A stretch of DNA of 64,000 bases from Escherichia phage iGC_PHA_EC001: the sequence record OR437326.1. One strand, given 5' to 3'. Below the pieces are notes generated by a model that had not been told where the DNA came from, ran no database searches, and saw only the letters and a list, made by a program, of their open reading frames with translations. The position numbers were made by a program, and so were the translations under genes. This document shows, piece by piece, positions 11,640 to 42,738 of the stretch. Every line of letters starts with the position of its first letter. Position 1 is the stretch's first letter.

Positions 11640-12755
11640 GTGGCAAATACATATTTAACTAATGTAGACTTTTCTGGAAAAGCTACGGAAGAGTCACTAG
11701 GTGCTCATATTGCTTACACTTTTGATTTTCAAGGTGGAGCGGCATCTGGTTATAATACCCCCCTTTTATTTAAGTCAGACGGATCTCCAGACATAACTTT
11801 TGAAAAGTTAGAAGCTCTCACTAAAATGGGAGAAGATGTTACAGAGTTACGTAAAAGCTATATTCAACAAGTGATGGATCGCATTTCTGAAAAAGTGCGT
11901 GAAAAATTTGAAGCTGGTTGGGATTGGGTTTACGTTATTGATGCTGACTTCGATGCGAACGTTGCAATTTTCTGTTCAGATAACGGTATGTTCTCTGTTG
12001 GCTTTAAAGTTGACGGACTGAATGTTGAAGTTGAAGAGGTTGCTAAACCTGTTGTTCGTGTTACTGATTATCAAGTTGTTGATGGTGATGTAATGATCTC
12101 CATTGATTTCTTTGAGGACGTTTTAGACGATGCTTTGAGTAATCTCGTTAAGAGTTCCTTGAAACAAAGTCAAGTTAAAGATTATTTAGTGAAAGCTCAC
12201 GCTAAAGCTAATACAAACTCTGTGGATGCAGAGGCTAACCCCGCAGGTGATAAATCTGCAAACACAACTGGAATCAATAAAGGAGAAACCCCTTTGGAAA
12301 ATATCAACAAAGAAGAATTCCTGAAATCTGCTGAATTCCAAGAACTGATGAAAGCACAGATCGCTGAAGCTGTAGAAAAAGCAGCCGCAGATGCACGTGC
12401 AGCCGCAGAACTTGAAGCACAGGAAAAAATCGCTAAGGCAGAACAGGAAGCAGAAGAACTTCGTAAAGCTGAACAAGCTCGTATCGAAGAAGAATATACA
12501 ACTGTTGTTAAATCCTATTCTTTCGTAGAAGAAGACAAAGTTGAAGCTCTCGTTAAATATCTGGTAGACAATAAAGATATCGCTGAAACTATCGTCAAAG
12601 CATTCGAAAAAGCACGTGCAGAAGTGGACGCAGTTAAGAAAGAATTTGGAACAGAACGTGGTGTTGACGTGATCAATACTCAACCTGTAGCTAAATCTTC
12701 TTCTGAACTGATTAGTCAGAAAGCTGCTGAACTTAAAAAAGCCCAGAAACAATAA
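11640..12755 (+). CDS. putative scaffolding protein
   Basis: GTG start; C-terminal half is Ala/Glu/Lys-rich coiled coil (AAADARAAAELEAQEKIAKAEQEAEELRKAEQ); located before decoration and capsid genes. Confidence 0.45.
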   Translation: MANTYLTNVDFSGKATEESLGAHIAYTFDFQGGAASGYNTPLLFKSDGSPDITFEKLEALTKMGEDVTELRKSYIQQVMDRISEKVREKFEAGWDWVYVIDADFDANVAIFCSDNGMFSVGFKVDGLNVEVEEVAKPVVRVTDYQVVDGDVMISIDFFEDVLDDALSNLVKSSLKQSQVKDYLVKAHAKANTNSVDAEANPAGDKSANTTGINKGETPLENINKEEFLKSAEFQELMKAQIAEAVEKAAADARAAAELEAQEKIAKAEQEAEELRKAEQARIEEEYTTVVKSYSFVEEDKVEALVKYLVDNKDIAETIVKAFEKARAEVDAVKKEFGTERGVDVINTQPVAKSSSELISQKAAELKKAQKQ

Positions 12756-16798: not shown

Positions 16799-18172
16799 AT
16801 GGCAACTTTTCGTGAAAAGGTAGCAACCGTAACTTTACTGTATGGTGCTACATCAATTCGTGAAACCCAGTTCGATATTCCCCTGATCCTTACAGGTCAG
16901 AACGTAACTGGCGAAGCGATTCAATATTACTCTTCTTCCGATGCACTTTTGGAAGCAGGTTATGGATTAAATGATCCAGCGTATATTATGGCAGTCAAAC
17001 TGTTTAACGGTTTGTTCCCACCAGATCAAGTCATGGTTGGTAAGCGTGAAGTTACAAACTTTACTCTAACTCCAATCGTAGAAGATAGTGCAACTTACAC
17101 AATTACCATCAAAAATGGTACCAAGAAAAAAGAATTTAAATTCATTGCTGATGACACTGCAACTGCACAAGAGATTGTAGTTGGTCTGACTGAAATGATC
17201 AATGCAGATCTTGTTTATGGCCCACTGTTTACAGTAGCTAACAACGGCGCTGCAATGACTTTCACTCCAGTAGAAGGTAAGTTTGGTTCTATTGACAGCA
17301 CAGGTTTCACTCAAGAAACTGTCTATGCTAATGCTATTACGGAAGATATCGCTGCTCTGCATGATATTGATAGTAGCTGGTTCTGGACCCTTTCAGATTC
17401 CCATGAAACAGAAGATGTTCTAGCTTTGGCTGCATGGGTAGAAGAGAATGATAAAGTTTACTTCTTCTCTAGCTCTGAACCTGGAATTAAAACGAAAGCA
17501 GAAGATAACGTTCTGGAACGACTGAATGACCTCGGTTATAATAACACTTGCTTTGCTTTGTGGATGACCGATGCAGATTCTGTATTCCCAGAAGCGGCAG
17601 TTGTTGGTGCAATCTGTTCTCGTCAACCTGGTTTAACTACTCTTCACGGTAAAACACTGGTAGGTGTAGAGATCGAGAAACTGGATCAGACTTCGGAAAA
17701 CAATATTGTTCAACAGAACGGTAACATCTATCGTAAAGAGCATGGAACTCTGTTCTATCGTGATGGATTGATGGTTAGCGGTTTCTTTGTTGACTATGTT
17801 GTTCATGCTTTGTGGTTTAAAGCTCGCACAGAAGAATCACTGTTTACACTGTTTAAACAACAGTCTATGCTGGGTGGCGGTGTTCGTGCTACTTCAAACG
17901 GTCTGGCTTTGATTCGACAAGCTGTTCTGGCTAACCCGATCCAAGTAGGTATCCTCAACGGTTCCATCGCTAATGAAGTTGTTACTTCTGAAGAGACTGG
18001 TTTGCGTGTCGATCTGAAACCTATTGTTTATATTCCTTCTCGTGCCGATATGACTGATGCGCAAATCAATGCTCGTCTGGTAGATGGGATGAAGATTGAA
18101 TATGTTTACGCTGGCTTCTTCCATTACGTTAAAGTTCAGGTCAACGTCCTGACTAACCGTACTGCAAACTAA
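16799..18172 (+). CDS. putative tail sheath protein
   Basis: 457 aa followed by a 159-aa tube-like gene, chaperone and tape measure (myovirus order sheath-tube-chaperone-TMP). Confidence 0.45.
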   Translation: MATFREKVATVTLLYGATSIRETQFDIPLILTGQNVTGEAIQYYSSSDALLEAGYGLNDPAYIMAVKLFNGLFPPDQVMVGKREVTNFTLTPIVEDSATYTITIKNGTKKKEFKFIADDTATAQEIVVGLTEMINADLVYGPLFTVANNGAAMTFTPVEGKFGSIDSTGFTQETVYANAITEDIAALHDIDSSWFWTLSDSHETEDVLALAAWVEENDKVYFFSSSEPGIKTKAEDNVLERLNDLGYNNTCFALWMTDADSVFPEAAVVGAICSRQPGLTTLHGKTLVGVEIEKLDQTSENNIVQQNGNIYRKEHGTLFYRDGLMVSGFFVDYVVHALWFKARTEESLFTLFKQQSMLGGGVRATSNGLALIRQAVLANPIQVGILNGSIANEVVTSEETGLRVDLKPIVYIPSRADMTDAQINARLVDGMKIEYVYAGFFHYVKVQVNVLTNRTAN

Positions 18173-18177
18173 TACGG

Positions 18178-18200
18178 CGGGGGTTAAGCCCCCGTTATCA
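18178..18200 (+). terminator. GC hairpin after sheath gene (weak U tract)
   Basis: CGGGGG-TTAAG-CCCCCG followed by TTATCAAAAT. Confidence 0.4.
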
Positions 18201-18218
18201 AAATAAAGAGGATCTATA

Positions 18219-18698
18219 ATGGATAAAATGCTTACTGGCGTAATGGCCTACGACCCATCTCAAGTTATCCTTTCATTAGGTGGTTGGGAACCGTGGGGTT
18301 TTGCGGCTGATACTAAAATCGTTATTGCTAAATCTAACGATATTATCAACCCTTATGCAGGGACTGATGGCGACGTTTCACTAGCTTTGAGTCGTAACCG
18401 TTTGGGAACACTCACAATGTCTTTGCAACGCACATCTCCAGCTAACGAAGTACTTGCAACATATGCACAAACAATGTATTCTACTCGTCAAGTAGCATTC
18501 AGCGTTTACTTGGAAGACCCACGTGGCTATTACATTAGCACGATTGGATGGATTCAAAGTCAGCCTGAAGATACTATTGGCGAAATGATTACAGAGAACC
18601 AATGGGTTATTGGTCTTAAAGATGCAAGCCTTCTGCGTAATGAAGTTGGTGTAGGTTTGAGCACCCTTAACTCAATCTCTGCTCTGACAATTCAATAA
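18219..18698 (+). CDS. putative tail tube protein
   Basis: 159 aa between sheath-like gene and chaperone/TMP. Confidence 0.45.
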   Translation: MDKMLTGVMAYDPSQVILSLGGWEPWGFAADTKIVIAKSNDIINPYAGTDGDVSLALSRNRLGTLTMSLQRTSPANEVLATYAQTMYSTRQVAFSVYLEDPRGYYISTIGWIQSQPEDTIGEMITENQWVIGLKDASLLRNEVGVGLSTLNSISALTIQ

Positions 18699-18703
18699 TA
18701 AAT

Positions 18704-18727
18704 AAAGGGCAGAAATGCCCTTTTTAT
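18704..18727 (+). terminator. intrinsic terminator after tube gene
   Basis: GGGCA-GAAA-TGCCC followed by TTTTT. Confidence 0.6.
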
Positions 18728-18743
18728 CATTAGAGAGGAAAAT

Positions 18744-19226
18744 ATGTCACAAGAACAAGATAACACAATTCAAAAATATGCTCGACCAGAAGAAGTAGTT
18801 GAGATTCCGTTAGATGGAAACAGATCTGTTACTTTCCGTATTATGAAGTGGAGTCCATCTAAAGTGTTTGACAGGATTCCAGAATTAGGTAGTGTTCTGG
18901 TTGTTCCTATGACTATGTATAGCACAGCAACAATGTCCGCAGACGAAGACCTTGAGTCGCGTATTGCTATGGCACTGATCCAACTTTTTGCAGGTTTGGA
19001 AGAAAAGAATTTAACTGTCTTTTTGCGTAAAATTTTAGATGAGGTTTATACTCAAGACGGTTATAACGTTGCAGAAAATTTTGATGAATTATTTATGGCT
19101 CACCCAGAACTAGTGTTAGATCTTACTGCTAAAGTTCTGGAGGTAAACTACGGCCCTTTTTTCAAACGAGGTTTCGGAAAACTGTTCACACAGCTTCAGG
19201 CGATGACGAGTTTAGCAGCAAATTAA
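18744..19226 (+). CDS. tail assembly chaperone (G-like, zero-frame product)
   Basis: 160 aa directly upstream of tape measure; contains slippery heptamer near its 3' end. Confidence 0.5.
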   Translation: MSQEQDNTIQKYARPEEVVEIPLDGNRSVTFRIMKWSPSKVFDRIPELGSVLVVPMTMYSTATMSADEDLESRIAMALIQLFAGLEEKNLTVFLRKILDEVYTQDGYNVAENFDELFMAHPELVLDLTAKVLEVNYGPFFKRGFGKLFTQLQAMTSLAAN

Positions 19227-19492
19227 CACCTGCGATTGAACATGCTATCGACATAGCAACGAAAACCCTTACTTTGAAGTGGTATGAGGTTATTCTTTGC
19301 AAAGTCGTTAAAGATACCTCGGAAACACTGAAAACATTGGATAACTACGGTGTAGATTATCTTTTAAAACTATATGAGTATTTAACATACGAAGAGTATG
19401 TTGAAGCCATGTATGTTAAAGACACTTCAATAAAGAGAAAACATCAAAACCAGACAAATAAAATGTCAGATTTGTTTAAGAAACTTGTTTAA
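18744..19492 (+). CDS. tail assembly chaperone, -1 frameshift fusion product (GT-like)
   Basis: -1 frame is open from 19133 to 19492 and is entered at T_TTT_TTC (19157-19163); downstream track ORF 19274..19492 starts at TTG without its own RBS. Confidence 0.45.
19157..19163 (+). promoter_or_regulatory. programmed -1 ribosomal frameshift slippery heptamer TTTTTTC
   Basis: X_XXY_YYZ in zero frame (CCT TTT TTC); conserved position between chaperone and tape measure. Confidence 0.5.
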
Positions 19493-28484: not shown

Positions 28485-30638
28485 ATGAAACAAGCTATAT
28501 TTACTGTCACGCGAGACAAGAGAGTAAATGCGAGTTCATTTAACTACACGACTGTTGACGGAACAGCAGTCGCTGGTAGAGATTATATTGCAAAATCGGG
28601 AACACTTGTGTTCCCTGATGATGCTGATTCTGCTACTATTGTGGTTGAAGTATTTGAACGACCAAAGAACTCAATAGATCTTAACTTCTCCCTCCAAGTT
28701 TCAGGGATTAGTCAAAATAACATGATGGTTGAAACAACCATCAATTGTATTATAACTACTATCCAAGAAAATACTACTCCAATAACTTGGACTACAAAAG
28801 ACGTTAAAATGTTCTCTCCTATGTATTGGACAATAGATTCTCAAGCAACGGAAAGTTGTTCTATTGTATCTCATGGAGGCTCTTTTACTGCAAGATTTGT
28901 AAACAGAACAACAGCAGGTTTGGCAGGGGTTATCTGGAGCACAGTTGACAAATATGACCATAAAGGTGTTGGGTATTTACCCCACACAGATTTAAGTTCA
29001 GAGAAACTTTGGTTTAAAATGGAAATTAGTCAAAACATGCCAGGTTTTAAAGAAGAACCTTTGGTGCCGACTTTGACTGTAACTCTCCTGGATAAAAGTG
29101 TTCATTATGTCAGTTTAGGATTCTATGCTTCAGATATTTCAGAAGATGGTAAAACAGCCACAATCAAGCTAGATTTTGGTAATATCTTTTCTGGCCCTAA
29201 TAATGATATTCCTTTGGATATGAGTGCCGTAGACAATATTTTCTTCTCTTTGATTACAGCAAGGTATGAAGAAATAGAGGAGATTGTACCTATTGATAGT
29301 CAAGAGGCTTGGTTTACTTTCACTCTTCTTGAACCTACTTCTGGTTACAGTATGATGAAAGTCAGCAACCTTGTCCAGCCTGAACATGATATTCGCATGT
29401 GCACATCTTATGATGATATGTATAACCTGACTCCAGAGAGAGTTATTTATAATACATATGCACTAGGTTATCGTGGGATGATTAACCATTATAACGGAAT
29501 GTCTCACTATTATGAGTTCTCATGGAATGGAACATCTTGGGCTTTAAATAAATCTGTTTTCCTGAATCCGGCTACAGAAGCTTGGCTTAACAGCTTCCAT
29601 TCTATAGCAAACGAGAAGGGCTACACAATAATGAACTCTTTAAGTTTTGAATTGATGAGCACAGTTTGTCCTGTAGAATGGGTCCAGCATGATTGGAACG
29701 ATGCTCTTGCAGCAACAGGGTATAAACCTCCTAGTTATGTGTTGTCTCCAACTATTGACGAAGGTATGGAATATTTGCAAAATGTTATTAATAAAATAGC
29801 ATCTATTTCGCAAGCTAATAATATTCCAGTTGTCATTCAAATTGGTGAGCCTTGGTGGTGGTATAATACAGCAAGTAAAATGCCTTGCATATATGATTAC
29901 ACTACCAAACTGGCATTCAACACAGAAACAGGTTTATTTGCACAAGATGCAGGAACAATAGATAATTATAAAACAGGAACGCCGTTTGACGAATACTATG
30001 CATTTTTGTCTCGTAAACTAGGATTAAGAGTTACAAAGTTTGCAACAGACACTAGAGCAACCTATCCAGGAGCTAAAGTAACATTGCTTCCGTTCTTACC
30101 GTCAATTATTGGCAACGGTTTGATGGAGAAAGTTAACTTTCCGTCTGATTACTACATTCCTGAAACTTTTGATTTTTACTGTTCAGAGTGTTACGACTGG
30201 CTTCTGGAAGGTAAAATGATGAAAGCATTCGATGCAATTACCATACCACATGAAAAATTAGGTTTTGAATATTCTGATATTCACTATCTTTCGGGTTTTG
30301 TTCCAGATGCTACTCTTGCACCTTTGTATGGCTTCGATCCTGAATCAAACTACCGCACGTATCTTTGGAAAATGATTATAGGTAATATAGTGTTGAACGC
30401 CAATAAGTTCAATGGGCTTACACAATATATATGGGCCTATCCTCAAATAATGCATGATTCCATCACGGTAGTTAATTCTCAATCCCAAGTTTTCTATATG
30501 GGTAATGTGCCTTTGAATTGTTATTTGCAAGATATCACTCTTAAACAAGCAAATGTTGAGATTGCTACCATAAGTGGAATTACATTAGCTACTAAATCTG
30601 GAGAAGATTTAGTAACAACACAAAAATTTTATATATAG
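28485..30638 (+). CDS. large tail-associated protein (717 aa), function unknown
   Basis: ORF track; strong RBS; same inserted block. Confidence 0.35.
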   Translation: MKQAIFTVTRDKRVNASSFNYTTVDGTAVAGRDYIAKSGTLVFPDDADSATIVVEVFERPKNSIDLNFSLQVSGISQNNMMVETTINCIITTIQENTTPITWTTKDVKMFSPMYWTIDSQATESCSIVSHGGSFTARFVNRTTAGLAGVIWSTVDKYDHKGVGYLPHTDLSSEKLWFKMEISQNMPGFKEEPLVPTLTVTLLDKSVHYVSLGFYASDISEDGKTATIKLDFGNIFSGPNNDIPLDMSAVDNIFFSLITARYEEIEEIVPIDSQEAWFTFTLLEPTSGYSMMKVSNLVQPEHDIRMCTSYDDMYNLTPERVIYNTYALGYRGMINHYNGMSHYYEFSWNGTSWALNKSVFLNPATEAWLNSFHSIANEKGYTIMNSLSFELMSTVCPVEWVQHDWNDALAATGYKPPSYVLSPTIDEGMEYLQNVINKIASISQANNIPVVIQIGEPWWWYNTASKMPCIYDYTTKLAFNTETGLFAQDAGTIDNYKTGTPFDEYYAFLSRKLGLRVTKFATDTRATYPGAKVTLLPFLPSIIGNGLMEKVNFPSDYYIPETFDFYCSECYDWLLEGKMMKAFDAITIPHEKLGFEYSDIHYLSGFVPDATLAPLYGFDPESNYRTYLWKMIIGNIVLNANKFNGLTQYIWAYPQIMHDSITVVNSQSQVFYMGNVPLNCYLQDITLKQANVEIATISGITLATKSGEDLVTTQKFYI

Positions 30639-30646
30639 GAGTAAAA

Positions 30647-32878
30647 ATGTCAACTACAATTACTAATTTACCCGAAACATCAAAAGTTAATGATTCTGAT
30701 TACCTGGTTTTAGACCAACCTGATAAGACTGTTAAAAGCACAGTTTCCAACTTTCTTACTGACACTGGGGTGGTTTTAGCCACCCAGTTGAAAGATACAG
30801 ATGGAGCAGATTTAATACAATCCTCAAATGGTAATACTGTTCAGGAAGAGTTGAATAACAATCTTCTTAATGATCGTGAACAGTGGCGTCGTAGTCTTGC
30901 CGAGGCTGGGTTAACTCTTGTTGATGGTAGTTTTGAAGAAGGGGCTACAGTGGGCAGTGTAACTGATGCTGTCTGGTACATAGCGGGTGCTCAGTGCTAC
31001 ACATGGGGGTCTGGTTTCCCTAAAGATGTACCACCTAAATCAACCCCGACATCAACCGGTGGAGTAGGTGTAGGGGCGTGGATATCAGTTGGGGATGCAT
31101 CGCTGCGCAGCCAGCTACACAGCCCATCGCTACCAGGAACATCGCTAATCAAACACTCTGACGGCAAGACTGTTCAGCAGGAACTCAACAGCATTCTTTC
31201 CGTCCATTCGCGCGTTTTCAGCGTTGATGACCCGCAGTTTGCTGGCGGTGCAAAAGGTGACAGCAACGGCACGGCAGGTAATGGTACAGACGATACGGCA
31301 GCTATTTATGCTTGCTTCCAGGCTGCAATTGCTGCTGGTGGTGGGAAGATTGTCTTCTCCCCTGGTAAGATATATCGGACGACATACACCGTCTTATACG
31401 GCAGCAACATGGTTATCGATATGCAGGGAGCGTCAATTTTCTTTGATGTCAAGCCGAATGACGGCTCTGTGTTCATGCCAGACTCCTTCCAGTCTTACAC
31501 CAAATTCACGACCGATGTGATTTTTATGAACGGCCAGATTAACGGCAGAACCGGTGCCGGTAACGGTATCGGTGCTAACCGTGCTCGCCGCCTCACATTG
31601 TTTAACATTGGTAGTAAATATCTACATTGGCACCTGTTTGACGGTGCTGGCGCACAGCAGGTTAAAATCATTAATTGCTGGTGTGAGGGGACTAACTCTA
31701 CTCCTTTCCAGGTTGATAACGCCACTTATGATAAGGCATCGTGGGGTATAGACGCATCGGGAAATGTACTTCCCATATCATTCGACGCAACAGGGGTCGG
31801 AGGATGGTCTAACTGTCGTGACGTGCTGATTATGGGATGCACTGTAAGGAATGCCCTTTATTCATGTGTGCATATTCATAATACCAATAACCAAAATATT
31901 CAGGTTATTAACTGTCATTTTGAAAATTCTAAGGCAGGTGTCTTTGCAGATAACAACGCAACATTTATAACCACTAATACATTAATTCAGGGGTGTACCT
32001 TCATAAGATGTACTAATCCTATCAGTTGGAGTGGTGGTTTTAATGTACTGCGTATTCTGGATAACAACTTCTACGGGGAAAACAATACTACCTGGTATTA
32101 CGGTATTCGCATCCTCTTAGCTGCTGCCGGTACTTTGAAAACACTAGCAATTAAAGGTAATACCTTCACTGGATTGTACCGACCTATCATCGTTAATGGT
32201 GTACTTGGGTTTGCGGTTGACGATAACGTATTTCAAACATGTGGCGGGACAACACCACCTTCGTCAGGCGGTGTCATTACCGCTGAAAACCCGTTGTCCA
32301 TAGTTCGTCTGTCCGGGTGCAAAAGTGGCACAGCAGCAAATAACGTGTTCCAGGATTGCAATGACCCAGTATGTATATCTGTGGCAAGGGACCAAGTAGA
32401 TTCGTCATACTCTTCGTCTGTAGAAGTTAATGGGAACATCTCCCGTGCTTCTGGATGCTTGTTGTCGCTACACTATGCGGACCGTTGCACGGCAAGAGAC
32501 AACAAATACATTGGCTTGGCAACAGACTTCTACGGCATCTACGTTGGTGAGACATCCTTAGCTTGTGTTATTGATGGGTTCTATTGCTCGCAGGGTAGCG
32601 GTCAGGCTGTGCATGTCAATGGTGGCCCCCGTCACGTAGTCCGAGATGTTGTGGCTTTCGGGACTGACACCACAAAGGCAGCAATTGTCTTCCACAACAC
32701 CAACACTGCAAGGTCTATGGACAATGTGGTAATGGGGGGTTACTTGTCTTCTGGATACATCTTGTTATCCGGTACTACCGTGAACTACGTTGGTGATGAA
32801 CCAAACATGACTATTGCCAAGCAAGATACGGCAACAGGCGTGAAGGTTGTCTACACGAAAGCGGCAGTGCAAAACTAA
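30647..32878 (+). CDS. tailspike / depolymerase with pectate-lyase-like beta-helix
   Basis: Motif GDSNGTAGNGTDDTAAIYACFQAAIAAGGGKIVFSPGKIY matches the pectate-lyase-3-type start of a right-handed beta-helix; N-terminal region shares a motif with fibre gene 40732. Confidence 0.55.
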   Translation: MSTTITNLPETSKVNDSDYLVLDQPDKTVKSTVSNFLTDTGVVLATQLKDTDGADLIQSSNGNTVQEELNNNLLNDREQWRRSLAEAGLTLVDGSFEEGATVGSVTDAVWYIAGAQCYTWGSGFPKDVPPKSTPTSTGGVGVGAWISVGDASLRSQLHSPSLPGTSLIKHSDGKTVQQELNSILSVHSRVFSVDDPQFAGGAKGDSNGTAGNGTDDTAAIYACFQAAIAAGGGKIVFSPGKIYRTTYTVLYGSNMVIDMQGASIFFDVKPNDGSVFMPDSFQSYTKFTTDVIFMNGQINGRTGAGNGIGANRARRLTLFNIGSKYLHWHLFDGAGAQQVKIINCWCEGTNSTPFQVDNATYDKASWGIDASGNVLPISFDATGVGGWSNCRDVLIMGCTVRNALYSCVHIHNTNNQNIQVINCHFENSKAGVFADNNATFITTNTLIQGCTFIRCTNPISWSGGFNVLRILDNNFYGENNTTWYYGIRILLAAAGTLKTLAIKGNTFTGLYRPIIVNGVLGFAVDDNVFQTCGGTTPPSSGGVITAENPLSIVRLSGCKSGTAANNVFQDCNDPVCISVARDQVDSSYSSSVEVNGNISRASGCLLSLHYADRCTARDNKYIGLATDFYGIYVGETSLACVIDGFYCSQGSGQAVHVNGGPRHVVRDVVAFGTDTTKAAIVFHNTNTARSMDNVVMGGYLSSGYILLSGTTVNYVGDEPNMTIAKQDTATGVKVVYTKAAVQN

Positions 32879-32938
32879 GGAGCACCCAGCCATTTACATT
32901 GATTGATGAAAGCGCCAACTGCTGTCACTATTGATAAG

Positions 32939-32963
32939 CACCCCGCTCCGGCGGGGTGTTTTA
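32939..32963 (+). terminator. intrinsic terminator after tailspike gene
   Basis: CACCCCGC-TCCG-GCGGGGTG followed by TTTTAAAA. Confidence 0.6.
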
Positions 32964-32987
32964 AAACTACAACATGAGGACTAACCC

Positions 32988-33293
32988 ATGAATAAGATGT
33001 TCACACAGCCCACTGGCCCAGTGGCTAAACAGGTTAATAAACAAGCCATTGCCCGTAAGTTTGGTGTTAAGCAGAATGAAGTAGTCTACTTTGCTGTAGG
33101 TGCTGTACTAAGTGGATATAAGATTATCTATGATAAGGAGACGCAAAGGGCGTATTCCCTACCTGCTGATATTGCCCCAGGTACTACTGCCATTAGTCTT
33201 AGTGCTACTGTACTTGTGCATTCAGCGGGTTCTGTAGACCTTGGGGAATTAGCTGTATATCGTGATTTAAAAAGTAATGAGAACGCACTATGA
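32988..33293 (+). CDS. small protein paralogous to an internal module of tailspike 37617..40670
   Basis: About 70 residues align with residues ~228-300 of the 1017-aa protein (IARKFG...SVDLGELAV vs IARKYG...SVDLSALAV). Confidence 0.45.
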   Translation: MNKMFTQPTGPVAKQVNKQAIARKFGVKQNEVVYFAVGAVLSGYKIIYDKETQRAYSLPADIAPGTTAISLSATVLVHSAGSVDLGELAVYRDLKSNENAL

Positions 33294-33532
33294 GAAAATT
33301 TTTAATAGGTATGTTCTGTACATATCCTGATAATAAAGTCAGTTCTACGAAAGTCTGGAACGCTGTAGGCATGTCGGTTATGACAGGCATGTTTATCTTT
33401 TTAGGAATAGAAAAAGAAATTCCTGAATGGATGGGTTGGGCTTTTGTTTTCATGATAACTCCTTCTCGCCTCATGAAAAATCTTATTGATTTACGCTGGG
33501 GCAGATCACAATCTACCAAAGAGGATGACTAA
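33290..33532 (+). CDS. putative holin (class II-like, two transmembrane segments)
   Basis: 80 aa with two hydrophobic stretches and a charged C-terminal tail (KNLIDLRWGRSQSTKEDD). Confidence 0.35.
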   Translation: MRKFLIGMFCTYPDNKVSSTKVWNAVGMSVMTGMFIFLGIEKEIPEWMGWAFVFMITPSRLMKNLIDLRWGRSQSTKEDD

Positions 33533-37616: not shown

Positions 37617-40600
37617 ATGGCAACATTCCCAACATATCCAGCAACGTCTCTCGAACAGGGCGTAGATCTGGTTATTTTCTCATCTAACCAACTCCATGAT
37701 GTTATTAATGGAAGTGCTACAGAGAGTATTGAAACAGAATCAGGGTTGATACCAACCCTGAGAAAAGCCCTTGTTGACAACTTTTTCTTTAAAAGCCCAT
37801 TAGATTGGGCGCAAGGCACAAACGAAACAGTTTTTAACCAACTTCGTTATTTCCAGAATGGAGTATTGAGCGGTTATTACTATGCTCCTAACGCTACATT
37901 GGTTAACCCAATCCCTATGCAAGGGACTCCAGTAGGAGATAACAACTGGGTATTGTGGGGACTGAAAACAGAACAATTAGCAACAGAAGTCACCCCGTGG
38001 GTATACTCTGGTGCAACTGGTTATGAAACAGTAATTAGTCCTCCTTACATCTTTGATAGTGCTATTGTTACGATCAATGGTGTTATTCAGGTTCTGGGGG
38101 AAGCTTTCCGTATAGAAGACAGTAAGATCATCTTATCTGAACCTTTGGGACACGATCCTGCAACAGGACTGCCAAACAAGCTTTTTGCTTATATTGGTAA
38201 AATCGTAGCTTCAGCAGATACAGATCCTAATCTAGAGAACCGTCTTGTTAGTTTAGAAACAAAAACGGAAGAACTAACAGAAAGCATGGATAAAGTCCCT
38301 CTGCAAACTATTGCTCGTAAGTATGGTTTGTTAGATGATGAGGTGGCTTACGCAACAGCAGGTCAATCGTTAACAGGGATTAAAGCTCTGTATGATCCGG
38401 TAGCACAGTCTTCCTACACATTACCTCCTAACATCACAGGAACTTTAACATCCTTATCTGTTTCTGGAGTAATGACTTATTCTGGAGGATCTGTAGACCT
38501 TTCTGCACTGGCTGTTGAGCGTGGACAGTTTGTTCATTTGCCTACAAGCTTTGGTAATAACGTAACTCTGACAGCTAAAAATCAGACGATTGGACGTGGT
38601 GCTGGTCGTTATCGTTGGGCTGGAAGTTTACCAAAAAGTATTTTGGCCTCTGATACATTGGAGACAAGCGGAGGATTAGGTCCAAATGCATGGGTTCTGA
38701 CTAATACAGAAGGACTGTTAACCCCTCGTGGTGGAACATACAACGATCTATTCGATGTTGTCTACTTGTCAGAATTTGCTAACAATACAACTACCTATAC
38801 CACACCAGAAGCAGCTTTCCAGGCGGCACTGTTAGCAGCAAAAGCTTCGAAAAGCAAGATTCTCGATGCTTACGGTTGCGACATGACTTTCACGACAAGC
38901 TCTTTTGATATTCAAGATATCACTTTGCGTGGTGGTGTGTTCCGTGGTCAACGCGATTATCGTGTGCAGAATGCTACAATAGAAGGCACAACTTTCCGTA
39001 ACTCTCGTGTTATGTATTGGGGTGGTGCTGTGCGCATGTTCGATTGTTTGTGGGACGGTGCTCCTCGCGCAGGTCAAGTTGGTAGCTTGGTATTCCAAGG
39101 CAACCCAATATCAGGTACTTTTGAAATTGATAACTGTACTTTTAAAAACGGGTTGTATGGCATCCTTCAACAAGGAACAGGGGAACCAGTAACACGTGGT
39201 GTCTTCCGTAACCTTACCTTCATGGACATGCAAGGTGATGCAATAGAACTGAACGTCATCAATAAACATTATGACGATGGTTGTGTGATTGAGAATATTT
39301 ACCTGTCTAATATCGATGGGACTAACGCTCCTATTCCTCTGTCCAACTGGGGTATCGGTATCGGTATAGCTGGTAAAGGACCATATGGTTACGGAATCCC
39401 TGATGATCAATATTGCAAGAATATTACAATTCGTAACGTTTTTGCAAAACGTTGTCGTCAGATTGTCCACGTAGAAGTTGGTCGTAATATCTCTATCGAA
39501 AACATTCATGGCGATCCAGACCAGACCGTATCTGTTGGGACAGGTTTGGCAACTGGCGCAGTTGTAATGTATGGAAGTAAAGATTTTACGATTGACGGTG
39601 TTTACGGAGAGCCTAAAACAGACGGTAGCACACTTGCAAGTAATATCCGTATGATTTATTTGGAGTGGGGAACTAACGCAGTTCTGGACGAAGAGGGTAA
39701 TCCGGTAGTTCCGGCACAGGGTAGACCTTCAAACCCATGCTTTAACTATTCTGTTCGTAACATTCACACCAAAACTGGGCGTGTTTTTGCGGGAGTTTCC
39801 GCTGGGCCAGGTTATGAAAACAGAGTTAGCTTTGAAAATATTCGTTGCGCTGCATTGCAGTTGTTCGGTATAGCTTCTTGGCTTTCAATGTCTAACATCA
39901 CCTGTAATATCTTCGACTGTGTTGGTCAACCTGAATCTGGTCCAGGGACATTTTATGATGGATTCTTCCGTAGAGAAAAATCTGTTCTTGAAATGGTTAA
40001 CGTAAACTGTTACCCAGATGGCAAGACGATGGTTACTGGTCGTCCACAGTGGAGCCGTTGCCGTTACTCGGATATTCATCGTGTCAACTGTAATGTTGAA
40101 GCTAATATGTATACCAATATCGCAGGTGGTATTGGAGCTATTGTAGGGACAACGGGCAAAGTTTATTACTTAGAGCCTAATCCTAGTCGAAACATTGATG
40201 GAATGCATTTCCCAACAGGGAAAGAGTTTGACAAAGGTGATATGATAGTCAAGGCGGATAATACGTTCTTCCTTGTAACAACAAGTGGGGCATATATTCC
40301 AGATATCCCAGCTTTCGGTATTCGAGCTACACAGGCAGGAGATACCTTCCTGACACAGAACTTGACTCCTAACGGGACAGCAACAAATGCTTCTTGGTTG
40401 TATCATTACCCTCTGTCAGCAGGGACACGTATCCGTATTCCTGGTGCTGGCGTAGGTGGAGCAGATTTGGACACAGTTATTACTCGTGCACCTTATCAAG
40501 ATAATGATACGTGGACTAACCCAGTTAAAATAGACATTGCAGATCCAATTGTAACGCCTACAAGTGCTGGAGTTAGAATTAAAACCATACCTAATGATTC

Positions 40601-40670
40601 CAGTAATGTTTCTGTAGGTAATACTGCGGTTATTCGCCCAACGCCAGTAGTAGATGTGCCAACAACCTAA
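37617..40670 (+). CDS. large tailspike / receptor-binding protein with probable beta-helix (1017 aa)
   Basis: Repetitive beta-strand-rich central region (N/G/T/V-rich); contains the module shared with ORF 32988; terminator follows. Confidence 0.5.
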   Translation: MATFPTYPATSLEQGVDLVIFSSNQLHDVINGSATESIETESGLIPTLRKALVDNFFFKSPLDWAQGTNETVFNQLRYFQNGVLSGYYYAPNATLVNPIPMQGTPVGDNNWVLWGLKTEQLATEVTPWVYSGATGYETVISPPYIFDSAIVTINGVIQVLGEAFRIEDSKIILSEPLGHDPATGLPNKLFAYIGKIVASADTDPNLENRLVSLETKTEELTESMDKVPLQTIARKYGLLDDEVAYATAGQSLTGIKALYDPVAQSSYTLPPNITGTLTSLSVSGVMTYSGGSVDLSALAVERGQFVHLPTSFGNNVTLTAKNQTIGRGAGRYRWAGSLPKSILASDTLETSGGLGPNAWVLTNTEGLLTPRGGTYNDLFDVVYLSEFANNTTTYTTPEAAFQAALLAAKASKSKILDAYGCDMTFTTSSFDIQDITLRGGVFRGQRDYRVQNATIEGTTFRNSRVMYWGGAVRMFDCLWDGAPRAGQVGSLVFQGNPISGTFEIDNCTFKNGLYGILQQGTGEPVTRGVFRNLTFMDMQGDAIELNVINKHYDDGCVIENIYLSNIDGTNAPIPLSNWGIGIGIAGKGPYGYGIPDDQYCKNITIRNVFAKRCRQIVHVEVGRNISIENIHGDPDQTVSVGTGLATGAVVMYGSKDFTIDGVYGEPKTDGSTLASNIRMIYLEWGTNAVLDEEGNPVVPAQGRPSNPCFNYSVRNIHTKTGRVFAGVSAGPGYENRVSFENIRCAALQLFGIASWLSMSNITCNIFDCVGQPESGPGTFYDGFFRREKSVLEMVNVNCYPDGKTMVTGRPQWSRCRYSDIHRVNCNVEANMYTNIAGGIGAIVGTTGKVYYLEPNPSRNIDGMHFPTGKEFDKGDMIVKADNTFFLVTTSGAYIPDIPAFGIRATQAGDTFLTQNLTPNGTATNASWLYHYPLSAGTRIRIPGAGVGGADLDTVITRAPYQDNDTWTNPVKIDIADPIVTPTSAGVRIKTIPNDSSNVSVGNTAVIRPTPVVDVPTT

Positions 40671-40731: not shown

Positions 40732-42738
40732 ATGAATTTAACAAGACCTAATAGTGCGATAGCCGATCTGGTAGAAGCTACTTATCGAAAACGTCGCAGC
40801 TTTGAGGCAGGTTTTACATTACGTAATTCCCGTGAAGTGTTGCTGTTAGCAGCAGAAGGGAATTATTACCAATGGAAAGGAACTTTTCCTAAAGTAGTTC
40901 CAGCAAACTCTACGCCAGCCGCCACAGGTGGTATTTCTTCCCTTGCATGGCAAAGTGTTGGGACCGCTGATGATATAGCAATTATCAATGCCAAGTTTAC
41001 GGCAATGCAGCAACAAATTGATGATCTGTCGGAAACAATACCTGAAGCTGGTAAATCGGCTTATCAGATCGCACTTGATAATGGTTTTGTTGGAACAGAA
41101 GCACAATGGCTTGCCTCTTTGAAAGGGGATACTGGTGCTCAACTTAATATTAAAGGATCATTAGCAAGCACTAGTGAACTACCATCCACAGGTAACGTTG
41201 CAGGGGACGGTTATATCGTAGGCGATGTAATCTACGCTTGGGATGGTTCTGTTTGGAAACTTATTTCTTCTCTTGGGCCAGAAGGTAAATCAGCTTACGA
41301 GGTATGGTTGGCAGATGGTAATACAGGATCTGTTTATGATTTTCTTACCTCTATAAAAGGTGATAAAGGTGATGTTGGTCCTACAGGGCCACAGGGAGCA
41401 CCTGGTGTTAACGCCAACGGTTTTGATTATCGTGGGGATTTGCCTTCTACAAGTAACTTACCACAACCTAACTCGGAAAACGTAAGCCAAGCTTATTCTA
41501 TCAATGGTAATCTTTATGTCTCTAACGGGACAGCTTGGGTCAACATGGGTAATATTGTTGGTCCTCAAGGTCCACAAGGTGAGGCAGGTAAAGACGGTCT
41601 TGATGGAACAGATGGAGATGAAGGGAAATCTGCATATCAAAGTTGGCTGGATGCTGGTAATGAAGGGACAGAAGTAGATTTTATTGCCTCACTTAAAGGT
41701 CCAAAAGGAGACAAGGGTGATCAAGGAGAGCGAGGTCCACAAGGTGAACTAGGTCCACAAGGACCAGTGGGTGCAACAGGATCAGGCTTAGAGATTATCG
41801 GGGTTCTGAACAGTGAAGCTGAACTTCCTCCTACTGGAGAAGTAGGCGATGCATATAAAATTAATAATGATTTGTATGTTTGGGTTCAAGATGCTACGGA
41901 ATGGATGAATGTTGGCAGTCTTGGAGGAATATCAATTACAGCTAAAGGTCATGTTCCGAACAGTGAAGCTCTCCCTGTTTACAATAACTATGGTGATGCT
42001 TACTTAACTGAAGACACTAGTAATCTTTACATCTATACTTACGATCAAGACACCAATTCCGCATCTTTTGTTGACATGGGAAGTATTAAAGGTGACAAAG
42101 GTGAGAAGGGTGATCCTGGAACAAACGGAACCAACGGTACTGATGGGACCAACGGTAAGGACGGCGCACAGTGGTTTGTAGCAACAACTAATCCAGTCGC
42201 AGGAGACGGTGTTATCAATGATTACGCCTTCAATACTAACACTGGAGCAGTGTTTAAGAAAACAGATTCTTCTACGTGGACACTTATAGGAACTCTTCCT
42301 AGTATACCAGAAGCCCCTCAAGATGGCTTGACGTATGGTCGTTCTGATGGAAACTGGATCGAAATATCAGGATCAGACCCTACAGAAGCTATAACACCGA
42401 CTAGAGTTACAGCAGGTTTCATGGAACTTGAAACAACTACTGCCAACTCTGGAGCATCTTGGACTCCTTCTGGAACTTCCAATATGTATGTTGTTACAGT
42501 AACTGACGCTCTGACAGTTGGAGCATGGCCTGGTGTCACTGGCTCTACAAAACCTAAAGCGTTTTCAGCAATGATTTATTTGATTCAAGATACAACGGGA
42601 CACACGGTTACACTAGATGCGTCTTATGGAGCACTAAATGATACAGAAATAGCAACTACTGCTAACGCAGTAACAATTTTGCAATTAACGTATCCTGGTG
42701 TGGGTGATATCGTGGACATGGTTGTTGTAACACGATAG
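40732..42738 (+). CDS. tail fibre protein with phage-fibre repeats and collagen-like Gly-X-Y tracts
   Basis: Three copies of GKSAY..L..G..G....F..S.KG repeat, each followed by Gly-X-Y runs (KGDKGDVGPTGPQGAPG; GPQGPQGEAGKDG; KGPKGDKGDQGERGPQGELGPQGPVG; KGDKGEKGDPGTNGTNGTDGTNGKDG). Confidence 0.6.
   Translation: MNLTRPNSAIADLVEATYRKRRSFEAGFTLRNSREVLLLAAEGNYYQWKGTFPKVVPANSTPAATGGISSLAWQSVGTADDIAIINAKFTAMQQQIDDLSETIPEAGKSAYQIALDNGFVGTEAQWLASLKGDTGAQLNIKGSLASTSELPSTGNVAGDGYIVGDVIYAWDGSVWKLISSLGPEGKSAYEVWLADGNTGSVYDFLTSIKGDKGDVGPTGPQGAPGVNANGFDYRGDLPSTSNLPQPNSENVSQAYSINGNLYVSNGTAWVNMGNIVGPQGPQGEAGKDGLDGTDGDEGKSAYQSWLDAGNEGTEVDFIASLKGPKGDKGDQGERGPQGELGPQGPVGATGSGLEIIGVLNSEAELPPTGEVGDAYKINNDLYVWVQDATEWMNVGSLGGISITAKGHVPNSEALPVYNNYGDAYLTEDTSNLYIYTYDQDTNSASFVDMGSIKGDKGEKGDPGTNGTNGTDGTNGKDGAQWFVATTNPVAGDGVINDYAFNTNTGAVFKKTDSSTWTLIGTLPSIPEAPQDGLTYGRSDGNWIEISGSDPTEAITPTRVTAGFMELETTTANSGASWTPSGTSNMYVVTVTDALTVGAWPGVTGSTKPKAFSAMIYLIQDTTGHTVTLDASYGALNDTEIATTANAVTILQLTYPGVGDIVDMVVVTR
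41355..42165 (+). repeat. collagen-like Gly-X-Y coding repeats within fibre gene
   Basis: Four separate Gly-X-Y tracts seen directly in translation. Confidence 0.6.

Follow-up and report, generated by a model that had tools for sequence, protein, structure and literature searches.

The sequence analysed here, a window of 64,000 nt read on one strand, comes from Escherichia phage iGC_PHA_EC001 (record OR437326.1) and belongs to Phapecoctavirus (Stephanstirmvirinae; rV5/phi92/phAPEC8-like E. coli myoviruses). On its plus strand lies an ORF of 101 aa (32988..33293, ATG to TGA), referred to below as the stub, in a region that is 94-99% identical to Phapecoctavirus genomes. The ATG is preceded at a distance of 7 nt by a Shine-Dalgarno (SD) sequence, GAGGA, read from the sequence at 32976..32980 (+), and the stop codon overlaps the ATG of the next gene (ATGA, 33290-33293). 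This gene (33290..33532, +) encodes an 80-aa membrane protein homologous to phi92 gp144 (ORF list, phrog_1322), and in the window only a GAG-type SD precedes its start codon. Given the good SD and the ATGA overlap with the next gene, the stub is probably still translated.

Upstream of the stub is a tailspike gene (30647..32878, +; 743 aa), which Pfam matches and alignments of relatives identify as the occupant of a variable slot; in phi92 the same slot holds the endosialidase gp143. The left arm of the slot (30647-~31101, +) is conserved and comprises an N-terminal anchor (aa 1-57) and a D2 domain (PF18668, aa 93-150). Among the variable-slot proteins of 10 relatives, residues 1-57 are common to all and the similarity often extends to residue 157, including D2, but the bodies are unrelated. 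A DNA search with 30647-33293 returned matches only for query nt 1-~455 and for the stub, and the receptor-binding body (31100-32878) had no DNA relative in 50,697 phage records; the body of the 743-aa tailspike may carry a specificity that is not yet in the collection. The cassette is closed by a GC-rich, terminator-like hairpin (32936..32961, +) with an 11-bp stem and a short U run, for which RNA folding gave -25.3 kcal/mol (z = -5.0; none of 200 shuffled sequences was equally stable). This hairpin was not listed by a consensus terminator scan, and its T run consists of 4 T only; an analogous hairpin is found 3' of gp143 in phi92. The stub, where present, always lies between the variable-slot tailspike and the membrane-protein and baseplate-wedge genes. 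Based on the conserved left arm, the unmatched body and the matched stub, the locus can be described as left arm, exchangeable body, hairpin and stub. On the 5' side of the slot, a gene at 28485-30638 encodes a 717-aa protein with a Calx-beta domain and the N-terminal and TIM-barrel domains of "non-contractile tail sheath protein" (PF23844, PF23845). It is a homologue of phi92 gp142, which the 2026 phi92 structure does not yet place within the fibre complex.

Within the stub three parts can be distinguished: an N-terminal peptide (codons 1-13, +), whose counterpart is disordered in TSP1; a D1 (TD1) tailspike head domain (codons ~14-93, 33027-33266, +), assigned by phmmer against the PDB and by AlphaFold with Foldseek; and a junction tail, LKSNENAL (codons 94-101, 33267-33290, +), which in alignments has no counterpart in full-length tailspikes. 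The phmmer search aligned stub residues 1-93 with chain residues 1-95 of G7C gp63.1 (4QNL, E 3.8e-34), followed by CBA120 TSP1 (4OJ5, E 9.7e-34), CBA120 TSP3 (6NW9/5W6F, E 2.7e-31) and Gp48 of Shigella phage B2 (9D84, E 1.1e-30); residues 8-81 of the TSP4 fragment 5W6H were also matched. Identity to D1 of TSP1/TSP3, gp63.1 and Gp48 is about 65-80%. The AlphaFold2 monomer model of the stub reaches a pLDDT of 63, a moderate value that is not surprising for a single chain taken from an intertwined trimer, and Foldseek comparison of this model with 9D84, 4OJ5, 5W6F and 4QNL gave E 5e-12 to 1e-10, TM scores (query) of 0.66-0.71 and rmsd values of 2.3-2.7 A. At ~70% sequence identity the D1 fold follows from homology as well. 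By sequence and by modelled fold, the stub is a D1/TD1 head domain. Pfam assigned no family to it (PF18668 represents D2 and does not extend to D1), and its matches to PHROG tail-spike families are confined to profile positions 1-92 or 328-420.

The likeness to CBA120 TSP1 and TSP3 amounts to about 65-76% identity over stub residues 1-93 and extends to the leader peptide and to the fold, in which a small beta domain comes after an N-terminal helix; in some stub alleles the first 59 residues are those of TSP1. D1 leads into D2, an alpha-helical neck and a beta-helix body of ~600 aa in TSP1 and TSP3, which dock on XD3 of TSP4 or TSP2, whereas the stub has D1 alone and an unrelated 8-residue tail. 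The closest match by sequence is to gp63.1 and Gp48, the esterase tailspikes that G7C-like podophages carry on gp66 and Gp49, respectively, with 80% identity in structural alignment. The genetic context in G7C is also parallel, since the D1 start of gp63.1 lies directly 3' of the gp66 body, as the stub follows the variable tailspike. However, gp63.1 and Gp48 are complete enzymes and are present in virions (PMC11654681), whereas the stub lacks an enzymatic part: it ends 8 codons past D1, without the neck and the beta-helix/enzymatic body of a functional tailspike.

The second D1 domain of the window is internal to a 1017-aa protein (37617-40670), which is a colanidase tailspike (phrog_6117, E 9e-283; crystal structure of phi92 gp150, 6E0V, E 1e-78). 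Here, a baseplate anchor (aa 11-127, match to 9CUY_g) and an XD-type domain are followed by the internal D1 (aa 226-302, 38292..38522, +; BLASTP, and PDB hits to TSP1/TSP3/gp63.1 across D1 and D2), by D2 (PF18668, Tail_spike_N; aa 302-361, 38520..38699, +; Pfam E 2.2e-9), which normally follows D1 and is missing from the stub, and, according to sequence matches, by a beta-helix body. The original prediction had taken the stub for a free-standing copy of this internal module (residues ~228-300, nt ~38298-38516). The alignment is real and the coordinates are right to within a few residues: BLASTP aligns stub residues 15-92 with residues 226-302 of the colanidase (35/78 identical, 45%; E = 1e-17), and the Smith-Waterman score is 155, whereas 1000 shuffled stub sequences reach 33.9 +/- 4.8 (maximum 63), so that the similarity is significant (z = 25). 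The ORF is also free-standing, but it is not a copy of the colanidase module, to which it is less similar than to the D1 domains of other tailspikes (45% versus about 65-80%). Codon-aligned nucleotide identity between the two is only 54%, which indicates an old relationship at the protein level and no recent duplication. No third copy of the domain was detected by tblastn in the whole window, and BLASTP of the 743-aa tailspike against the stub found no D1 copy there (E 0.098).

The stub opens with MNKMFTQP..., a leader of the gene-start type MNxMF(T/S)Q. Since identity is 45% to the colanidase and about 65-80% to other tailspike N-termini, and since this gene-start leader is present, the stub must be traced to the 5' end of another tailspike gene; judged from these comparisons, it is the orphaned 5' end of a different gene, of the TSP1/gp63.1 type. 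D2, by contrast with D1, occurs in three receptor-binding proteins of this phage, one of which is a 668-aa tail fibre with collagen repeats (40732-42738) that opens with D2 (PF18668, aa 12-77, E 3e-19); D1 is present only in the colanidase and the stub. The phi92 homologue of the colanidase, gp150 (804 aa; phi92 record 16864-19278), appears to lack D1-D2, its crystallised fragment aligning to colanidase residues 180-201 and then 426-1000. With an XD-like domain and a D1-D2 head in one protein and apparently no D1-D2 in the other, the same enzyme seems to be placed on different attachment modules in the two genera.

In full-length tailspikes, D1 continues as ...LAVSREEYVTLPGSF... (D2), with REEYVTLPGSF at the junction, whereas the stub instead ends in ...LAVYRDLKSNENAL and its stop codon (RDLKSNENAL); by alignment, D2, neck and body of the ancestral tailspike have been lost. 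The junction RDLKSNENAL, or a variant ending in ...NAP, was seen in every stub inspected, both in Phapecoctavirus (anhysbys, nieznany, tuntematon, ukendt, KKP 3954, ECML-183-2, Ro121c4YLVW) and in Justusliebigvirus (PD06, PaulScherrer). A common junction points to one old truncation that subsequently spread. A full-length ancestor at the stub locus was not found among the 38 candidates of a homologous-protein search that returned short proteins only and served to count stubs. IMG/VR loci contained mostly full-length tailspikes of Kuttervirus and G7C-like phages and few Stephanstirmvirinae; relatives were taken from GenBank phage records. The tail LKSNENAL itself might go back to an out-of-frame reading of the additional 5' stretch that phi92 gp144 has and that the membrane-protein gene would have had ancestrally; the resemblance is one of A-rich sequence.

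A comparable small ORF with D1 only is found at the tailspike locus of Gamaleyavirus U1G, where gp80 is a "tail spike protein" of 107 aa. Its truncation point and its C-terminal tail (GKSRGSILPYLARSPPVP) differ from those of the stub, which argues for an independent truncation event; the Stephanstirmvirinae stub, unlike that of U1G, has one common junction spread over two genera. In U1G the D1-only ORF (4186-4509) is followed by short "tail fiber" ORFs, and a sequencing frameshift, or fragmentation of a gp63.1 homologue, could also account for the arrangement. Ackermannviridae records repeatedly contain D1-headed tailspike genes that are split or truncated, whether in reality or through errors of assembly. 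For example, a TSP1 homologue on a Kuttervirus-like IMG/VR contig (3501-3640) is broken by a frameshift after 45 codons, and Salmonella phage S115 carries a feature annotated "tail spike 1 hypothetical N-terminal".

The distribution of the stub is patchy. It is absent from phi92, as judged by tblastn, and phAPEC8_ev052 has neither the variable tailspike nor the stub. In phi92, which is a structurally characterised type phage (PMC13450770), the order is gp143 stop, hairpin (ATACCGCTTCGGCGGTAT), a dedicated SD and gp144, which carries 8 extra N-terminal residues (MVKEKNGF...; phi92 record 12522-12570). Megablast with the 3' half of the stub retrieved 63 records, ~52 of them at >=90% identity (Stephanstirmvirinae), and 44 covered >=80% of the query; by comparison, the adjacent membrane-protein and wedge genes were found in about 132-141 records. 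The stub is present in only ~1/3 of the subfamily genomes and missing in roughly 60%. It is not a core gene of the Stephanstirmvirinae, being absent from the two phages named above and 5'-truncated in several others.

All of the 5' truncations are anchored at the 3' end. They range from ORFs of 64 aa (SD2) and 49 aa (UAB_1) through an unannotated remnant (ESCO9) to the shortest remnants, the last 65 nt of the stub in cardinal and the last 34 nt in AV126. SKA64 (3838-4182) encodes a 114-aa in-frame chimera, in which an unrelated hydrophobic N-terminal segment of ~50 aa is joined to stub codons ~38-101. This N-terminal segment is annotated as similar to CKV1F_gp37 of a K1F-like phage, which suggests that a former cassette of the endosialidase type left its downstream small ORF behind. 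Full-length copies of the stub, by contrast with these eroded ones, are open: no frameshift or internal stop was present in any of the 10 examined, among which two in-frame 3-nt indels occur, and the ORF is intact in about 140 member sequences of protein clusters of 101-103 aa.

The genealogy of the stub contradicts that of the neighbouring genes. Between different genera, the stub is nearly identical at synonymous sites and the wedge gene is not (window versus PaulScherrer, dS 0.03 for the stub and 1.4 for the wedge; nieznany versus PD06, 0.014 and 1.44), whereas within Phapecoctavirus the relation is reversed (window versus nieznany, 0.5 for the stub and 0.09 for the wedge). Sliding-window identity to the Justusliebigvirus phages PaulScherrer and PD06 is 93-100% at ~33117-~33330 and 72-85% in the membrane-protein and wedge genes. 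The homogenised segment (33117..33330, +) spans the 3' half of the stub and runs ~40 nt into the next gene. Several alleles exist of the 5' half (codons 1-50), among them that with 59 residues identical to CBA120 TSP1.

At the nucleotide level the stub is 77-88% identical to Kuttervirus TSP1; recent exchange of the stub with Kuttervirus was rejected on account of this low identity. Possible donor architectures, in which the D1 start of one gene comes immediately after the body of another tailspike, are found in Kuttervirus (order TSP4-TSP3-TSP2-TSP1) and in G7C (gp66, then gp63.1). U1G and Ro121c4YLVW are 90.8% identical over ~185 nt upstream and the first ~150 nt of the D1 ORF or stub. At the protein level, similarity of a Phapecoctavirus tailspike body to Agtrevirus TSP4 has been reported (PMC11414711). 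The DNA search of phage records yielded no donor for the 743-aa body of the window, and no donor-recipient pair spanning both body and stub.

Constraint on the stub is clearly relaxed, yet some remains. The pooled pN/pS of the resident 3' half is 0.44, compared with 0.01-0.11 for the membrane-protein and wedge genes, and the closest pairs of stubs differ by 4 non-synonymous versus 2 synonymous changes and by 4 versus 1. Nei-Gojobori dN/dS between divergent alleles is 0.1-0.35, although much of this divergence may predate the truncation and have arisen in full-length genes. With D2, neck and body lost, a patchy and eroded distribution and relaxed constraint, the stub has the properties of a gene remnant, albeit one with an ORF that has stayed open and a pN/pS below 1.

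The reading that we favour, and hold to be rather probable, is that the stub is what remains of a TSP1/gp63.1-type tailspike gene: a dispensable sequence, not needed for the virion, that serves tailspike cassette exchange as its right-hand homology arm or persists as its scar. According to this, a TSP1/gp63.1-type gene would have lost D2, neck and enzymatic body once, in the common ancestor of Phapecoctavirus and Justusliebigvirus, and the loss would have joined D1 to the start of the membrane-protein gene. Subsequent exchange of cassettes in the slot may have used the stub as its right-hand arm, with crossovers falling inside it; such crossovers would give a mosaic 5' half, a homogenised 3' half and a variable loss of 5' sequence. 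The protein itself would then have no structural role. Translation of the stub may nevertheless help ribosomes to start on the overlapping membrane-protein gene, which might be why eroded versions stay in frame. A recombination remnant was among the possibilities raised by the original prediction, and it is borne out by the truncation junction common to the stubs inspected, their patchy occurrence, the stepwise loss of 5' sequence and the relaxed constraint. A role as template for module exchange, which it had also raised, appears plausible for a homology arm at the edge of the variable slot, but not for an exchange partner of the colanidase.

Several observations do not sit easily with a mere remnant. 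The ORF is intact in all 10 full-length copies and in the cluster members, its SD is good, and pN/pS remains below 1. The truncation falls exactly at the domain boundary, as would be the case for a stand-alone domain under selection. Moreover, the eroded and chimeric versions keep the frame to the ATGA overlap, suggesting that translation matters, for example by coupling to the membrane-protein gene. A literature search yielded neither expression nor virion proteomics data on any phage that carries the stub, and no virion proteomics on any Phapecoctavirus.

A different explanation is that the stub is kept only as a translational leader: its amino acid sequence would be irrelevant, and ribosomes on the stub would allow coupled initiation at the membrane-protein ATG. 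The ATGA overlap fits, as does the fact that the membrane-protein gene's own SD is weak (GAG-type) in stub-bearing phages and that stub-less phi92 has a dedicated SD and a different 5' end of gp144. The variants in SKA64 (114 aa), SD2 (64 aa) and UAB_1 (49 aa) all open into the same overlap. In PD06, however, the stub and the next gene are 17 nt apart and do not overlap, and the ESCO9 remnant carries no annotated ORF. Coupling also does not account for a full D1 of 93 residues as the predominant form. As the sole explanation we regard it as unlikely, but it is compatible with, and does not exclude, the remnant explanation.

A further possibility is that the domain still functions in docking. 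D1 of the TSP1 head binds the XD3 (T4 gp10-like) domain of TSP4 (PMC8825819), G7C gp63.1 requires XD3 of gp66 (PMC8825819; PMC11414711), and B2 Gp48 occurs in complex with its adaptor Gp49 (PMC11654681). An isolated D1-D2-neck fragment of TSP1 (residues 14-166) binds TSP4-N, its trimerisation requiring Zn2+ (PMC8825819). In the window, a candidate docking surface is the gp10-like XD-type domain of the colanidase (aa ~121-178, 37977..38150, +), for which phmmer gave weak hits to 7Y22_e (E 3.5e-4), 9K4A (E 0.008) and 23SH_r (E 0.022) and still weaker ones to CBA120 TSP2 residues 18-71 (E 0.06) and HRP29 Gp44 (E 0.17); from its sequence, this domain may serve as a docking site for a D1-headed partner. 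The 101-aa protein might therefore be made, trimerise and occupy such an XD surface as a cap or plug, thereby sealing or stabilising a fibre-complex branch point that formerly bore a full tailspike, or it might compete with a D1-headed tailspike. That D1 is a docking domain whose isolated TSP1 head binds TSP4-N via XD3, that the colanidase carries an XD-like domain, that most carriers have an intact ORF with a strong SD, that the truncation lies exactly at the D1/D2 boundary and that pN/pS is below 1 are all consistent with such a role.

We nevertheless consider a functional cap unlikely. Phi92 assembles its multivalent apparatus normally without a stub, which roughly 60% of subfamily genomes also lack, and this absence from phi92 and most relatives also makes the competing adaptor envisaged by the original prediction improbable. 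Half-domain versions, which could not adopt the D1 fold, have nevertheless persisted in SD2, UAB_1 and SKA64. In vitro, trimerisation of TSP1 depended on Zn2+ even for a fragment comprising D1, D2 and neck; the stub has neither D2 nor neck, which contribute to trimerisation, and in its N-terminal helix the window allele has Lys where TSP1 has His (ARKFGV versus ARHFGV). The monomer model is of moderate confidence only (pLDDT 63), and the XD assignment relies on weak hits (E 3e-4 to 0.17). Similarly unlikely is the more elaborate proposal that the D1-only protein is expressed and incorporated as a minimal "blank" on an XD site of the branched fibre complex, plausibly that of the colanidase, while its DNA doubles as a landing pad for tailspike bodies captured from tandem arrays of the Ackermannviridae/G7C type. 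If true, the stub would be a naturally occurring "empty socket filler" in a modular receptor-binding apparatus that lost its tailspike.

The original prediction implies that the internal colanidase module was recently duplicated in this genome. This reading could draw on the significant alignment and on the fact that these are the sole two D1 copies of the window, but it is refuted by the hierarchy of identities (45% aa and 54% nt to the colanidase module, versus about 65-80% aa to tailspike N-termini of other families and 77-88% nt to Kuttervirus TSP1) and by the MNxMF(T/S)Q leader, typical of gene starts, which the stub has and the internal module lacks.

The locus resembles other cassette systems. 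In the tsp clusters of Ackermannviridae and the anchor-branch receptor-binding protein systems of Klebsiella phages, a conserved 5' module is likewise combined with bodies that can be swapped, and recombination occurs at domain borders (PMC11414711). The stub locus differs from these in that its conserved right flank is formed by a relic of another tailspike gene in place of a functional neighbouring gene. Truncated fragments of receptor-binding proteins at exchange hot spots are already known, and the stub is a well-documented further example.

In GenBank the stub ORF is annotated by best BLAST hit as "tail protein", "tailspike" or "tail spike protein 3", and the BME3 paper counts it as one half of a tail spike "consisting of two CDSs of 102 and 552 aa" (PMC12210895). 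In our literature search, no paper treated the ORF as an orphan D1 domain or considered what it does at the cassette boundary. The annotation can now be corrected to that of a docking-domain stub without a receptor-binding part, and for this reason the stub should be left out of receptor-binding-protein counts in host-range prediction. It also marks the right boundary of the exchangeable cassette in phi92/phAPEC8-like phages, the left arm being 30647-~31101 and the right arm the stub, and these boundaries are of practical use for host-range engineering by cassette swapping. Finally, homology of D1 and D2 links the receptor-binding loci of three unrelated groups of phages, the Stephanstirmvirinae, the Ackermannviridae and the G7C-like Schitoviridae.
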